A stretch of DNA of 64,000 nt, taken from Escherichia phage phiEco32. The notes beneath the pieces are model-generated. The model searched no databases, was not told the origin of the DNA, and saw only the letters and a list, made by a program, of their open reading frames with translations. The translations under genes were made by a program, and so were the position numbers. Positions 16,931 to 20,232 of the stretch are shown piece after piece (positions within the stretch are counted from its first letter, which is position 1; every line of letters starts with the position of its first letter). The stretch lies in sequence record NC_010324.1. One strand, 5' to 3'.

Positions 16931-16970
16931 AAAGAAAAGCCCCAACCGAAAGGAAGGGGCTTTATTTGTT
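16931..16970. terminator. bidirectional rho-independent terminator at the convergence point of the two transcription blocks
   Basis: aagcccc-(12-nt loop)-ggggctt with T-runs on both sides (tttatttgtttc on plus; ttttctttt on minus). Confidence 0.5.
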
Positions 16971-17287
16971 TCTAAGTTTTAAAAACCATCAAATTCGTCA
17001 TACATCCCAATTCTCTTCAGAAGTCTGGATGTTCATCTTCAAAGCATCCTGAGATGCCTCCATAGAACCAATCCGATTTACTTCCAAGGATAACAACTTC
17101 TTCATTCATATACCCTCCTAGATTGTGTTTATAAAATTAGTAAGTTTCTCTTCACTTTCATCAAAATCTTTTCCAGCTGCTTCCATCTCCCAAGTATCGG
17201 CATTGTCAATAAAGCTCTGAGCTTCTAATAGATCGTGGATTAAGTCGAAGAGTTTATTTTTATCTGCTTGTGTGATCATGTCAGTTC

Positions 17288-17545
17288 CTAGATTAAATCG
17301 TAATACTGAATAATGTCAGAGAGTTTGAACTCTCGAATCTCATCTTTCTCTATATCTATCGCTGTCATAATCCAACAAGGTTTGCCACCGTTATGAAAAC
17401 GGGAGCTAGCAACGGAGGTTCGGAGTGGAATAACGGACCGGTCAGCAACCTCGCCTCTCCAATTGCGATAGCGAAAGCGAAGCACTTGTTGCGTAGATTT
17501 TTGATCATCACTCATTTCCTTTTTTGAATTGTTTTCTTGCATCAT
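17288..17545 (-). CDS. hypothetical protein
   Basis: 85-aa ORF, first minus-strand gene after the convergence terminator; no recognisable motif. Confidence 0.35.
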   Translation of the reverse strand: MMQENNSKKEMSDDQKSTQQVLRFRYRNWRGEVADRSVIPLRTSVASSRFHNGGKPCWIMTAIDIEKDEIREFKLSDIIQYYDLI

Positions 17546-17912
17546 TTTCCATCTTAGTTTTTAGTTTATGACAAGGGTCTTTACACAGAACCTGAAAACC
17601 TTCTTTCTCACACAGAGCACGAGAGATGATTTCGTCCCAAGTTGCTTCATGATCAAGAGGAACTATAGGATCTATGTGGTCAATAGCCATATCCTTTACA
17701 GGGTGGTCAGAACCACACATGGCACACTTAAAGTGCATTGCCAGTCTGCCTGTCTTTGGATTAATCTTCTGCTCTGTCTTGGCGTCTGCTAGTGCATCGA
17801 ACATGGGCTTCCACTTTCTAGTCAGAGAACGAATCCCTGACTTGATGAAAGAGTTATAACGAGCTTCAGTCCACTGATTACTGCATCTTGTTTTATTAGC
17901 CTTCATTTGCAT
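17508..17912 (-). CDS. HNH endonuclease
   Basis: Track ORF 17508..18032 trimmed to internal ATG (MQMKANKTRCS) because the upstream 40 codons overlap the neighbouring gene. Motif KCAMCGS...HPVKDMAIDHIDPIV...LCKDPCHKLK. Confidence 0.55.
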   Translation of the reverse strand: MQMKANKTRCSNQWTEARYNSFIKSGIRSLTRKWKPMFDALADAKTEQKINPKTGRLAMHFKCAMCGSDHPVKDMAIDHIDPIVPLDHEATWDEIISRALCEKEGFQVLCKDPCHKLKTKMENDARKQFKKGNE

Positions 17913-18348
17913 ACTCTCCGTGAAGCTTCTGTCTTTCTTCTCTAAGAGCTTCTGCGGCAGACTCCAGTGAGTCAAAAACTCCCAGTGAGTACCTCCTTTT
18001 ATTAGCAGAAATTCTTGCTCTCCATTTACCATTAGGCTCTTGGGTTATTCCTTTATATCCGGAAGTGTTATTGTTGTTAATTTTTCTATTGTAGGCATTT
18101 TCTAAAGGTGTTACTAGCCTGAGATTATCCCGTCTATTGTTTTGTCTATCGCAATCTATGTGATCTACAATCTTTCCAGAAATATCCAAACCTTCCATTA
18201 GAAAAACCAATCTATGCAACAGGTACTTCTTCCTGTCGATAAAAGCAAAAAGATACCCATCTCGGTCTACCTTAACTCTAAGTCCAGTAAATTCTCCTGT
18301 ACTTGGGTCATACTCAAAAGAGCATCTAGTCTTCTCAGACTTCGCCAT
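17896..18348 (-). CDS. HNH homing-type endonuclease with AP2 DNA-binding domain
   Basis: 150 aa; HNH_3-type motif VDHIDCDRQNNRRDNLRLVTPLEN then AP2-like YKGITQEPNGKWRARISANKRRYSLGVFDSLESAAEA. Confidence 0.75.
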   Translation of the reverse strand: MAKSEKTRCSFEYDPSTGEFTGLRVKVDRDGYLFAFIDRKKYLLHRLVFLMEGLDISGKIVDHIDCDRQNNRRDNLRLVTPLENAYNRKINNNNTSGYKGITQEPNGKWRARISANKRRYSLGVFDSLESAAEALREERQKLHGEYANEG

Positions 18349-18527
18349 AATCAGCTTCTTCCCAAACTCGTTTGTTTACACGATGACTCACTTTACCCTC
18401 ACGAGGAATACGACCAGTTCGCTGATCAAACAGTTGATGTTTAATCTTTTGGTCTTTACGAGATTCACGATTGGAGGAGTTTTCATCATATGAACGATAA
18501 TCAAATTTACCCATTATAATATCCTTA

Positions 18528-19355
18528 TTACCAAGATTTATCTAACCATGTCCAGTCGAACAGGTCTTCCGGAGTCTGACCAACAAAGAGAAGCCGAGCA
18601 TTCTCAAGCATCTTCTCTTCATCTTCAGTATCGAACTTCTTATAATATTCCATTCGTACTATATGATACATGGTCCACTTGTCTGTAACACCAGCCAACA
18701 ACTTAGCTGCTGCTTTCTTCCCTATTCCTTGACGTCGAAGCTGAAGCTTACCTCCCCACATAACTTCTTTACGTTCTCCACATCCGGGGATATTATCTGT
18801 ACCATCTCCAACCAGCATCTGATAGAAGAAATTTTGCCATGAAACTAAATCAGACACGTAGTGAGGAGGAACCTCTTTCTGTCTTTCTCCACAAGCCCAA
18901 CGATAATGCCATCCGGGAGTTATCAACAAATCTTTGTCTCTAGTACAGATGATAGTATTCTTATCTCTGCGTTGCCTTTCGGCTAGTGCATCATCAGCCT
19001 CTCTCCCAAATACGTCTATGTATTCATATTTACCTTTAATGTAATCACCAACATTTTGCCAGTGAAAAGGTCTTTCTCCGGGAGGTCTATTTGCTTTGTA
19101 GTCTTGCTGTTTAGCAACATCAAAACGGAAGTTACCACCTTCGCTGAAGTAGAACACAACCTTGCTACAACCTGATCGAGCTATGATTGTATCAATCTTA
19201 TACTGAAGTCGTTCAATCATGAAATTGTAATCAACTGGAACACGTCCTGTGTCAAGGAAGGGATGCTCCTGAGTAAGAGCACCCACTTCATACCGAAGAA
19301 CGTCAGCGTCCACTATAGCAACTTCAGGGAGCTTAACTTCTTCCATAAATATCAT
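18528..19355 (-). CDS. 5'-3' exonuclease / flap endonuclease (FEN, RNase H-like)
   Basis: Motifs AIVDADVL, TRDKDLL and GDGTDNIPGCG (metal-binding carboxylate clusters of the PolI 5'-nuclease family). Start ambiguous (ATG 19355 or 19346; track used TTG 19370); overlaps the upstream gene end. Confidence 0.7.
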   Translation of the reverse strand: MIFMEEVKLPEVAIVDADVLRYEVGALTQEHPFLDTGRVPVDYNFMIERLQYKIDTIIARSGCSKVVFYFSEGGNFRFDVAKQQDYKANRPPGERPFHWQNVGDYIKGKYEYIDVFGREADDALAERQRRDKNTIICTRDKDLLITPGWHYRWACGERQKEVPPHYVSDLVSWQNFFYQMLVGDGTDNIPGCGERKEVMWGGKLQLRRQGIGKKAAAKLLAGVTDKWTMYHIVRMEYYKKFDTEDEEKMLENARLLFVGQTPEDLFDWTWLDKSW

Positions 19356-20222
19356 CCTGAGCTTGAGCAATAATCCAATCTAGATCTGATACTGCTGATT
19401 CAATAGTTGAGTCATTAAACAGTAGATATGTTTTTCTCTGTTCGCCTTCAATATATGAGCGAGAGTCTCCATCAAAAGAGCAACCATCTCTAAGAACTTG
19501 GACAACTTGGACATGGAAATTCTTTTCTAGTTCTCGTACCTCTGCATCAAAACCTCCGTCAGTAAACACGACAATATCATCCTGACCTAGCCCTTCTTGT
19601 TTGATACTTTTTACAGCAAGATTCCCCATATGATTGTTTCCAAACATAGGTTTTAAGAAGTCTTCACTTGTAGAAATCATCAAATCTCTTACAGACTTCC
19701 CTCCCCATTCTGGTCTAGGTTTTTCTTTCCATTCACGATCTTCATAGCGTGCTAGAAAGTTTTCTAGAGGTATTCCTAGTGCAGCAGCAGCTACTCTGTA
19801 CATTGGCTCCTTGAAGGATTTGGTTGAATATCCATGGTGGTATGAATGGGCATTGACCCAAGCATTGGCTATCGTATCTTTACCACAACCCGGAGGCCCA
19901 TTAAGAATTACTACTAAAGGCTTATAGTGGGAACCTCCCACCATATTGGTCAGTGCTGGATTGCCTTGAGATTCCATTTCTAATTGCTCCGTGTGGTCAT
20001 GTGAGTAGTCTATTGGAGAAGTTTTGTTACCAGTAACTTTAGGTAAAATCGCTCTAGTTGTTTCTACGTATTTACCGCCATCAATATTGATTTGAAACTC
20101 TACAAGCTCATTCTGTAACTCATATCCTGATAAGTTGGATAGCTCCTCCAACTCATCTCTGACGAAATTTAAATGTTTGATTTTAATTGCAAGAGCTTTC
20201 TTTAAAGCTTTTACCTCTTCAT

Positions 20223-20232
<10 letters not shown>
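19333..20232 (-). CDS. P-loop kinase, dNMP-kinase-like (T4 gp1-like) with N-terminal coiled-coil extension
   Basis: Walker A VVILNGPPGCGKDT; downstream DIVVFTDGGFD resembles the T4 dNMP-kinase layout. Assignment by motif only. Confidence 0.45.

Follow-up and report, generated by a model that had tools for sequence, protein, structure and literature searches.

Results

Two overlapping HNH genes in phiEco32

The window that we analysed is a stretch of 64,000 nucleotides from Escherichia phage phiEco32 (NC_010324.1), and the locus of interest consists of two open reading frames (ORFs) on the minus strand that overlap in different frames and carry HNH motifs (Table 1), just as the initial annotation of the sequence had described them. 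Both are already annotated in GenBank, and both proteins are exact matches to phiEco32 entries. We refer to the first as the HEG (homing-endonuclease gene) and to the second as the resident gene. The start of the latter had been placed at position 17912; since that ATG is missing in two of the four lineages that carry the HEG, and the 132-aa GenBank product begins at 17906, we set the conserved start at ATG 17906, and the overlap with the HEG is then 11 nt. The motif KTRCS, said to occur at both N-termini, is indeed present in each (MAKSEKTRCS in the HEG protein and MKANKTRCS in the resident one), and a phmmer search across all window ORFs of at least 50 aa gave no further paralogues of either protein.

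Table 1. Features of the HNH locus, with positions numbered from the first letter of the window
Feature	Position	Strand	Description
AP2-HNH homing-endonuclease gene (HEG)	17896..18348	-	150 aa; GenBank ABY52832.1
HEG domains	residues 42-85; residues 96-144		HNH_3 (catalytic) and probable AP2 (DNA binding), respectively; from domain and structure matches
Left copy of the duplicated site	18319..18348	-	ATGGCGAAGTCTGAGAAGACTAGATGCTCT = MAKSEKTRCS; 10 codons
HEG body proper	17907..18318	-	FEYDP ... KLHGEYAN; without counterpart in HEG-less genomes
Putative Shine-Dalgarno, GGAGAG	17914..17919	-	7 nt upstream of ATG 17906
Right copy (spare N-terminus)	17874..17906	-	ATGAAGGCTAATAAAACAAGATGCAGTAATCAG = MKANKTRCSNQ
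HEG stop codon	17898..17896	-	overlaps ATG 17906 of the resident gene
Resident gene, predicted zinc-finger HNH nuclease	17508..17906	-	132 aa; GenBank ABY52831.1; equivalent to SU10 gp027 and YF01 gp25
Upstream 59-aa gene	18335..18514	-	PHROG 10643; last 14 nt overlap the HEG start
Bidirectional intrinsic-terminator hairpin	16936..16972	both	context only, outside the element

The pair had also been described as lying next to a convergence terminator, which holds only roughly: the two transcription directions do converge at a hairpin, and SU10 has an annotated terminator at the corresponding site, but the hairpin is about 540 nt away from the genes, with three small ORFs in between. The idea that the neighbourhood is an insertion hot spot is supported in relatives. 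It was recognised by reading and folding the sequence, a simple terminator scan having given nothing. The 221 Klebsiella-phage matches in our first BLAST search were 33-41-nt matches to this terminator region and not to the HNH genes, and they were set aside.

The two predicted nucleases

The HEG protein has a clear Pfam HNH_3 match (E 9.6e-15; 54 bits against a cut-off of 24.8), and it matches both PHROG 99 "HNH endonuclease" (7e-54) and the structure of I-HmuI (1u3e). An AP2 domain is probably present as well: the Pfam AP2 hit (E 1.7e-6) scores 28.7 bits, below the curated cut-off of 33.3, while plant AP2/ERF structures are matched at E 3.5e-5 and PF00847 appears in the precomputed Pfam list for the protein. 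The catalytic motif is intact, with D62, H63, N71, N75 and N84 invariant in the alignment of 24 homologues. In the same alignment, the C-terminus (KLHGE[YF]A) is that of the family, whereas a replacement has taken place at the N-terminus, where the family's own first ~10 residues are missing. The gene is under purifying selection (dN/dS 0.04 between the phiEco32 and L044 copies); between lineages, dN is 0.14-0.23 and dS is saturated.

The resident protein matches PHROG 3106 "HNH endonuclease" (7e-40) and has an intact CxxC..DH..CxxCH motif, in which C61, C64, C108 and H113 are invariant and D76, H77 and C112 nearly so (at least 90%); the earlier description of both genes as encoding HNH nucleases is supported. 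Sequence searches of PDB and NCBIfam gave no match, a Foldseek search of PDB found nothing significant, and similarity to HK97 gp74, GVE2 HNH and Geobacter Gme HNH is undetectable at the sequence level. By fold, the protein is predicted to be a small beta-beta-alpha-metal nuclease of the gp74/GVE2/McrA type, its core bearing zinc-binding cysteine pairs, with a conserved N-terminal helical region (W..ARY.SF.KS.LR...RKW.P) that is extra relative to HK97 gp74, GVE2 HNH and Gme HNH. The gene's surroundings comprise exonuclease, dNMP kinase and sigma-factor genes, and the late genes are encoded on the other strand. The gene does not adjoin the terminase and portal genes, in contrast to genes of the HK97 gp74 type. 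The label "terminase small subunit" has been judged unfounded for this gene, the terminase of YF01 being gp3/gp4 (small terminase gp3) and the resident gene gp25 (PMC9965538). The resident gene lies in the middle-gene block, and we do not regard it as a small terminase. Probably, the protein does a job that the phage needs, putatively DNA processing or nicking. The localized nicks of phage tf were considered as a lead and dropped, as PMC3517423 draws no link from them to an HNH gene.

In every kuravirus examined, the resident gene occupies the same position; this holds for 97 of 97 matching phage records and for all 18 loci recovered from metagenome and IMG/VR scans, both kuravirus-like and more distant. 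Purifying selection acts on the gene (dN/dS 0.07-0.17), and unrelated podophages of 45-50 kb carry homologues of it in single copy. The proposal that it is itself a free-standing homing endonuclease, to be checked by its presence or absence among relatives, finds no variation to rest on in either set. From its distribution and sequence conservation, we take the gene to be a conserved single-copy kuravirus gene that serves as the HEG's target and host.

The HEG lies inside the resident gene

Rather than merely lying beside the second gene, as first reported, the HEG interrupts its 5' coding end immediately behind codon 10. In a BLAST comparison with SU10, the 453-nt segment 17875-18327 of phiEco32 corresponds to 15 nt, and the flanks are 100% identical over 500 nt upstream and 98-99% identical downstream. 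The difference between the two phages at the junction is confined to those 15 nt, 8 of which are substituted, and just downstream of the HEG identity is 92-100% per 100-nt window. The insert is almost entirely ORF. The two 5' ends of the HEG and the resident gene form a 22-nt direct repeat of 77% identity; because this repeat and the HEG-less relatives show one gene start duplicated, we read the common KTRCS motif as the scar of a duplicated insertion site and not as chance.

Which copy is the original is visible in relatives. The resident gene of SU10 opens with the same 21 nt as the left copy of phiEco32, and the empty site in L007 and L038 is identical to the left copy in L044 over all 30 nt. 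In phiEco32, the HEG continues in frame from the 10 codons with which the resident gene originally began (MAKSEKTRCS/FEYDP..., the slash marking the junction here and below), and the start that it uses is the one from which HEG-less phages translate their resident gene; the 14-nt overlap of this start with the 59-aa gene suggests translational coupling. At the other end, a new ATG arises at the junction AAT/GAAGGCT, and the GGAGAG upstream of it is built from the HEG's own conserved G-E codons; GGAGA is found at the same distance before the resident ATG in all four HEG lineages. The rebuilt resident protein reads MKANKTRCSNQ/WTEARY..., its spare N-terminus recoded relative to the interrupted codons.

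Distribution of the HEG and HEG-less twins

HEG presence was scored among about 97 phage records carrying the resident gene. In this collection, TH34, an "UNVERIFIED" record, is the only other GenBank kuravirus with the HEG, which SU10, MN03 and all the rest lack, and the presence or absence polymorphism sought for the AP2-HNH gene is therefore real. None of the 18 loci from the metagenome and IMG/VR scans, kuravirus-like or more distant, carries it; the HEG/resident junction pattern was not found in the IMG/VR scan, and the single metagenome scan gave HEG-less loci only. The positive cases form four diverged lineages (phiEco32 with L044-47, TH34, L003-5 from Logan and L006 from ENA) whose HEGs are 68-79% identical and share the same architecture and the same site. 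Three of the four have HEG-less twins with flanks 98-100% identical; upstream of the site, L003 and its twin L042 agree at 98.1% over 484 nt, and L006 and its twin L043 at 99.6% over 250 nt.

In each of the four lineages, the first 9-10 residues of the HEG match the local HEG-less N-terminus. The four versions are MAKSEKTRCS, MEKAEKTRCS, MPRAKLNKTR (compared with MPRAKPNKTRCS of the HEG-less P0127) and MPRANSSPKTV (compared with MPRANSSPKTRCS of the HEG-less P0136). The resident gene behind the HEG, on the other hand, opens with M[KR]A[NEK]KTRCSN[QE]W in all four. As judged from these alignments, the left copy is lineage-specific and the spare N-terminus stays with the HEG. Between phiEco32 and L044-47, the HEG is 94-96% identical and the spare N-terminus identical, while the upstream gene is only 72-84% identical and each left-flank background has HEG-less twins of its own; we interpret the same HEG in different flanking backgrounds as evidence of transfer.

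All HEG-carrying alleles have Asn before the conserved Trp, a position held by Gly in 13 of the 15 HEG-less protein clusters. The empty sites are of the SU10 type (...GAGAAGACTCGCTGTAGTGGAATGTGGACTGAAGC), the L007 type (...AAGACTAGATGCTCTGGAATGTGG) and the ECBP2 type (...AGATGTTCAAACCAGTGG), the last being Asn-type. Sliding 100-nt identity between phiEco32 and 12 relatives gave no extended co-conversion tract beside the HEG. The HEG-less phages XT18 and SDYTW1 differ at six positions within 9 nt at the R-C-S codons, all synonymous; as a resistance signature, such recoding is suggestive only, similar mismatch clusters being found elsewhere in the same 1.4 kb.

Discussion

A probable selfish gene that would restore the gene it interrupts

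We consider it likely that an HNH_3-AP2 HEG inserted after codon 10 of the resident gene, taking over the resident start and bringing along a patch that rebuilds the interrupted gene. The HEG would have lost its own first ~10 codons and, because it is fused in frame to the original resident start, would be translated from the resident gene's initiation site. Its 3' end would in turn supply the Shine-Dalgarno sequence, the new ATG and the synonymously recoded spare codons that make the resident gene complete. In a mixed infection, the endonuclease would nick or cut the intact allele that HEG-less relatives carry, near its codons 8-13, and repair off the HEG-carrying genome would transfer both the HEG and the spare N-terminus to the damaged one. 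By virtue of its recoding, above all the change from Gly (GGN) to Asn (AAT) just before the conserved Trp, the spare copy would shield the carrier from self-cleavage. The cut site so placed and the immunity credited to this change are both inferences, and the synonymous changes of the patch, along with Gly-to-Asn, may also give the carrier immunity to cleavage. In its presence and absence among relatives, the AP2-HNH gene acts like a mobile homing-endonuclease gene, and cleavage activity is predicted for its product.

The most serious alternative, although we regard it as unlikely, is that the HEG is an old and immobile resident, inserted once in an ancestor and repeatedly lost, with the HEG-less alleles as deletion products and no present homing. 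The divergence of the HEG between lineages is about equal to that of the neighbouring genes (68-79% against 69-76%), and this is explained equally well by long vertical residence with recurrent loss and by ongoing homing; moreover, HEG-less alleles of the ECBP2/UKE3 type (..AGATGTTCAAA[CT]CAGTGG) resemble exact recombination products of the repeat copies of TH34. In three lineages, however, the HEG-less twins have Gly where the HEG-carrying alleles have Asn, and they show other differences besides; therefore, they are not simple deletion derivatives of their HEG-carrying twins. The same HEG with the same spare N-terminus occurs in two flank backgrounds, and the strong constraint on the nuclease is hard to square with an inert passenger.

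We find it improbable that the two genes are independent free-standing homing endonucleases that ended up as neighbours in a hot spot for insertions, which was the original reading of the locus. Both do encode HNH nucleases, further HNH genes are found close by in relatives, and "homing endonuclease" is the annotation given to some of the second gene's distant homologues. The second gene is nevertheless universal among the kuraviruses examined, fixed in position and conserved by purifying selection, it is itself interrupted by the first, and its protein lacks the separate DNA-binding domain that homing endonucleases typically have. Marginally less probable still is domestication, with the AP2-HNH protein retained because it benefits the phage, perhaps by regulating through DNA binding or by partnering the resident HNH protein. 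The strong purifying selection, the long persistence and the tight translational coupling to the resident gene would all agree with such a role, and AP2 DNA-binding modules have been re-used as regulators (PMC10448857); yet the great majority of phages that are otherwise nearly identical lack the HEG, which is thus dispensable, and the HEG protein keeps all its catalytic HNH residues. Finally, a group I intron with an intron-encoded endonuclease, whose splicing would restore the resident gene, is very improbable: while the nearest solved homologue, I-HmuI, is intron-encoded and an intact resident protein would result if codon 10 were joined to AATCAG, an Rfam scan of 17400-18600 gave no group I or group II intron match at E <= 10, the ORF fills nearly all of the 453 nt and has no space for a ribozyme core, and the downstream start, Shine-Dalgarno sequence and spare N-terminus make splicing unnecessary.

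Relation to known systems

Insertion with a portable patch has partial parallels in several systems. The layout of the phiEco32 HEG, with an N-terminal HNH_3 and a probable C-terminal AP2 domain, is shared with T5 heg, with genes of the Xanthomonas phages Xp10, OP1 and Xop411 and with the "IPA-HNH" genes of ICP1. These free-standing HNH_3-AP2 ("HNN-AP2") HEGs have a catalytic core related to I-HmuI and, like the phiEco32 HEG, occur sporadically among otherwise near-identical phages. The Xanthomonas phages even combine mobile HNN-AP2 genes with a single-copy CxxC-type HNH gene at a fixed position (PMC2248197), the same contrast as between the two genes of phiEco32. HNN-AP2 HEGs have been described as intergenic, however, whereas the phiEco32 HEG lies inside coding sequence; the borrowing of the host start and the carrying of a replacement 5' end also set it apart from them.

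Endonucleases tied to conserved genes are familiar from other phages. MobE and the T4 seg and mob genes home without an intron: each encodes a free-standing endonuclease linked to a conserved phage gene, and in mixed infections it is spread through the repair of double-strand breaks. MobE reportedly splits the nrdA gene of Aeromonas phage Aeh1 into pieces; in phiEco32, by contrast, the host gene does not become two functional polypeptides but stays one complete ORF, because its first codons have been duplicated.

The closest analogue is the fungal mitochondrial "gene hybrid", known from atp6 of Allomyces macrogynus and from atp6, atp9, cox2 and nad3 of Glomus, where endonuclease ORFs insert in genes, often in frame, and bring along a diverged gene end, so that the gene stays functional (PMC3630166). 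In both cases, the native and the inserted copies of the gene end form a diverged duplication. The fungal hybrids involve LAGLIDADG and GIY-YIG endonucleases in mitochondria, whereas ours is an HNH enzyme in a phage, and the likeness is a functional analogy, not a sign of common descent. The geometry is also reversed: in the fungal hybrids, the C-terminus is replaced and the displaced native end decays downstream, whereas in phiEco32 it is the N-terminus that is replaced, along with a start codon and a ribosome-binding site, and the native N-terminus, once displaced, has become the start of the endonuclease.

Implications

If the proposed mechanism is correct, a selfish nuclease gene can occupy a conserved phage gene harmlessly, with neither an intron nor an intein. 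We would give slightly less than even weight to the broader idea that the cassette exemplifies a separate strategy of general use, in which HEGs colonise coding sequence by stealing a start and carrying a portable recoded patch. For annotation, the downstream gene should be treated as a conserved nuclease, neither a homing endonuclease nor a small terminase, and the insertion scar could mislead both gene-start calls and pangenome clustering. As phiEco32 and SU10 are cultivable, they and the three natural empty-site variants make a system for studying homing, target recognition and resistance, and they do so in the kuraviruses, a phage group now in therapy use. In relatives, the 3' end of the resident gene bears a second HNH endonuclease, likewise fused in frame, which we take as a sign of the strategy's generality in a gene-dense operon.

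Structure and distribution of the gene pair

The initial annotation described two overlapping HNH genes, and these are borne out, with the start of the second moved 6 nt from 17912 to 17906: the latter ATG is the conserved start and the one used in GenBank, and the former is lacking in two of the four lineages with this arrangement. The encoded proteins of 150 and 132 aa are exact matches to ABY52832.1 and ABY52831.1 (phiEco32, 77,554-bp contig), and their genes, overlapping in different reading frames, form the terminal part of a block with a sigma factor, a SLOG-family protein, a dNMP kinase, a 5'-3' exonuclease and a 59-aa protein. The components are therefore known, as both genes already carry HNH endonuclease annotations. 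Phages commonly carry HNH-AP2 homing endonucleases (PMC2248197, PMC10448857), and the first protein, encoded by what we call the HEG, matches the structure of the homing endonuclease I-HmuI and those of plant AP2/ERF domains. The second, or resident, gene encodes a predicted small HNH nuclease that binds zinc and has, in addition, a conserved helical region at its N-terminus.

Both genes had been regarded as probable free-standing homing endonucleases; presence or absence variation was found for the HEG, whereas none was seen for the resident gene. When 2.5 kb around the pair served as query, dozens of kuraviruses matched at 95-98% identity, SU10, MN03 and YF01 among them, and all of these matches had a gap of about 440 nt. 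In the alignment to SU10, 17875-18327 of phiEco32 is non-homologous and replaced by 15 nt, while the flanks are 100% identical over 500 nt upstream and 98-99% identical downstream. DNA and protein queries found a close relative of the HEG in a single phage record, TH34 (73% nt, 74% aa), the next-best protein being about 40-45% identical. The resident gene is present in 97 phage records at >=60% identity and its position never varies, and all 18 loci from the IMG/VR and metagenome scans have it and lack the HEG; single-copy homologues of 26-50% identity are found in unrelated 45-50 kb podophages, with hosts including Vibrio, Pseudomonas, Citrobacter and Aeromonas. With dN/dS of 0.07-0.17, it is under purifying selection. 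The gene is conserved and probably needed, and its being the predicted target of a homing endonuclease would fit that. Two places in MG983840.1 (phage myPSH1131) match the resident protein, which may reflect a duplication or an assembly artefact.

The resident gene does not adjoin terminase genes, so it lacks the synteny used as a criterion of the packaging-HNH family. Its equivalent in YF01, gp25, was discussed in a pangenome study that judged the 'terminase small subunit' label on some records an HNH-domain artefact (PMC9965538). The label is widespread for this protein (UniProt B0FIJ2, many GenBank records) and has apparently been propagated in error, a case already made by that study. An 85-aa gene overlaps the resident 3' end by 38 nt and is kept beside it in all lineages seen, distant Logan and ENA contigs included.

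Coordinates of the features discussed (phiEco32 window unless a relative's locus, L0xx, is named)
Feature	Location	Strand	Remarks
HEG	18348..17896	minus	HNH_3 (Pfam E 9.6e-15) and AP2 (E 1.7e-6, slightly under the Pfam cut-off)
Resident gene	17906..17508	minus	PHROG 3106; CxxC..DH..CxxCH HNH motif
85-aa gene	17288-17545	minus	Weak WYL-domain match (E 3e-4, just under cut-off)
dNMP kinase ORF	19333-20232	minus	299 aa
30-aa ORF	17017-17109	minus	Unlisted; MNEEVVILGSKSDWFYGGISGCFEDEHPDF
Shared 41-nt piece	16979-17019
Shared terminator-hairpin piece	16935-16967		33 nt
Second AP2-HNH gene	L045:1314-1799; L046:804-1298		161-164 aa
Dam-type methylase	L022:1287-1817; L003:2315-2854; L043:240-782
Resident gene with PHROG 3377 fusion	L045:2443-3393; L046:1942-2892; L003:3443-4390		315-316 aa
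XT18 extra genes	L019:2799-3419		Two small ORFs and a 121-aa HNH gene (Pfam HNH, E 8e-9)

An insertion that takes the start and returns a spare one

The KTRCS motif shared by the two N-termini is an insertion scar. The resident gene of SU10 opens ATGGCGAAGTCTGAGAAGACT CGCTGTAGTGGAATG TGGACTGAAGC (MAKSEKTRCSGMWTEA), its first 14 nt overlapping the 3' end of the upstream 59-aa gene. The phiEco32 HEG opens with the same 21 nt, followed by AGATGCTCT (R-C-S), after which the endonuclease body begins TTTGAGTATGACCCA (FEYDP); its 3' end reads ...CACGGAGAGTATGCAAATGAAGGCTAA, and there, overlapping it, the resident reading frame begins anew with ATGAAGGCTAATAAAACAAGATGCAGTAATCAG TGGACTGAAGC (MKANKTRCSNQWTEA). 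The left copy (the original start, now opening the HEG) and the right copy (the spare N-terminus at the HEG 3' end) form a 22-nt direct repeat of 77% identity with a spacing of 439 nt. According to the family alignment, the usual first ~10 residues of the endonuclease family are absent from the HEG and the N-terminus of the resident gene stands in their place, while the C-terminus, KLHGE[YF]A, is native to the family. The new ATG of the resident gene arises at the junction (..AAT/GAAGGCT..), and GGAGAG, a putative Shine-Dalgarno sequence for the rebuilt gene, lies 7 nt upstream and comes from the conserved G-E codons of the endonuclease. No in-frame ATG other than the original start precedes residue 51 of the HEG, which must therefore use the original initiation site of the resident gene.

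The same architecture, with identical site and identical overlap, is found with four diverged versions of the endonuclease (68-79% aa identity): that of phiEco32 and loci L044-47, that of TH34, that of three Logan contigs (L003-5) and that of one ENA contig (L006). In each lineage, the first 9-10 residues of the HEG copy the local HEG-less N-terminus, and the resident gene downstream has one common N-terminal type, M[KR]A[NEK]KTRCSN[QE]W. The copying is confirmed at the DNA level by twins with and without the HEG, which are 98.1% identical across 484 nt up to the junction in one pair (L003 vs L042) and 99.6% across 250 nt in another (L006 vs L043).

N-termini of the HEG and of local HEG-less resident genes (slash, junction)
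Lineage	HEG N-terminus	Local HEG-less N-terminus
phiEco32	MAKSEKTRCS/FEYDP	MAKSEKTRCSG[MT]W
TH34	MEKAEKTRCS/FSYNP	MAKAEKTRCSNQW
Logan	MPRAKLNKTR/FEYDP	MPRAKPNKTRCSGQW
ENA	MPRANSSPKTV/FEYNP	MPRANSSPKTRCSGEW

The most telling case for the spare N-terminus going with the endonuclease is that of L044-47, from four different samples. Their endonuclease is 94-96% identical to that of phiEco32, and their spare N-terminus is the same as the phiEco32 one; the upstream gene is the other allele, of the 63-aa type (72-84% identical to its phiEco32 counterpart), and the left repeat copy matches at 30/30 nt the empty site found in L007 and L038, HEG-less phages with this background. One endonuclease variant thus sits in two backgrounds, each with its own HEG-less twins, the pattern expected of a mobile cassette of endonuclease body and spare N-terminus.

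Maintenance, mechanism and alternatives

The catalytic residues of the HEG are invariant in the alignment, its dN/dS is 0.04 between phiEco32 and L044, and dN between lineages is 0.14-0.23, with synonymous sites saturated; therefore, the endonuclease protein is maintained by selection. We suggest that the predicted endonuclease would nick or cut the uninterrupted allele near codons 8-13, that repair of the break would copy the cassette into the broken genome, and that the recoded spare copy would shield the genome carrying it. All alleles with the HEG have Asn (AAT) immediately before x-Trp, and 13/15 HEG-less protein clusters have Gly (GGN) there, though these counts are not phylogenetically independent. 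The Asn-type HEG-less alleles of ECBP2 and UKE3 resemble what recombination between TH34-type repeat copies would yield; they could also represent the ancestral allele that took the first insertion. The R-C-S codons are synonymously recoded among HEG-less alleles (CGCTGTAGT, AGATGCTCT, AGATGTTCA), which is striking, yet not unique within the region.

The HEG and its neighbouring genes show similar divergence between lineages, so long residence with repeated loss may be the main dynamic of the HEG. Three observations speak against pure loss: the HEG is under strong purifying selection, it is present in two backgrounds, and twins with and without it differ at the Gly/Asn position and elsewhere. 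No wide co-conversion tract is visible around the HEG. As far as an Rfam search shows, there is no group I intron.

In the phage literature searched, we found no description of an element that inserts in frame at the 5' end of a gene, takes over its start and brings along a portable substitute for its N-terminus. The nearest parallel comes from fungal mitochondria, where mobile endonuclease ORFs insert into atp6, atp9, cox2 or nad3 and bring a foreign replacement C-terminus (PMC3630166); the phiEco32 cassette is the mirror image, the replaced end being the 5' one.

A variable neighbourhood

The idea of an insertion hot spot holds for the neighbourhood. In phiEco32 and SU10, nothing separates the exonuclease gene from the small upstream gene; in relatives, this slot is filled by a second AP2-HNH gene (43% identical to the first) in L045 and L046 and by a Dam-type DNA methylase in 4E8, EK5, Logan contig L003 and ENA contig L043. 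In some relatives, the resident protein is enlarged: an in-frame fusion at the resident 3' end adds an entire PHROG 3377 'HNH endonuclease', which makes up the final ~190 residues and is 61% identical between the two lineages, and the resident domain has also had its C-terminal half replaced. This looks like a second endonuclease using in-frame fusion, at the opposite end of the same gene. The extra genes of XT18 adjoin the convergence terminator, a position at which phiEco32 has nothing.

The dNMP kinase ORF is longer in phiEco32 than in TH34 (198 aa) or XT18, UKE3 and SU7 (~200 aa); the ~100 additional residues at its N-terminus match a PHROG of their own (26149), have no homology in several relatives and are another variable segment. 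The 30-aa ORF is flanked by the DUF7438 gene and the terminator, has no Pfam match and is preceded by a perfect AGGAGG ribosome-binding site. The 33-nt piece at the terminator hairpin is 100% identical in >100 T4-like phages, which infect Klebsiella, Enterobacter, Citrobacter and Cronobacter, and the 41-nt piece is shared at 95% with other Klebsiella myophages, within 'hypothetical protein' genes; together, these two pieces account for most of the 382 matches in the first BLAST search.
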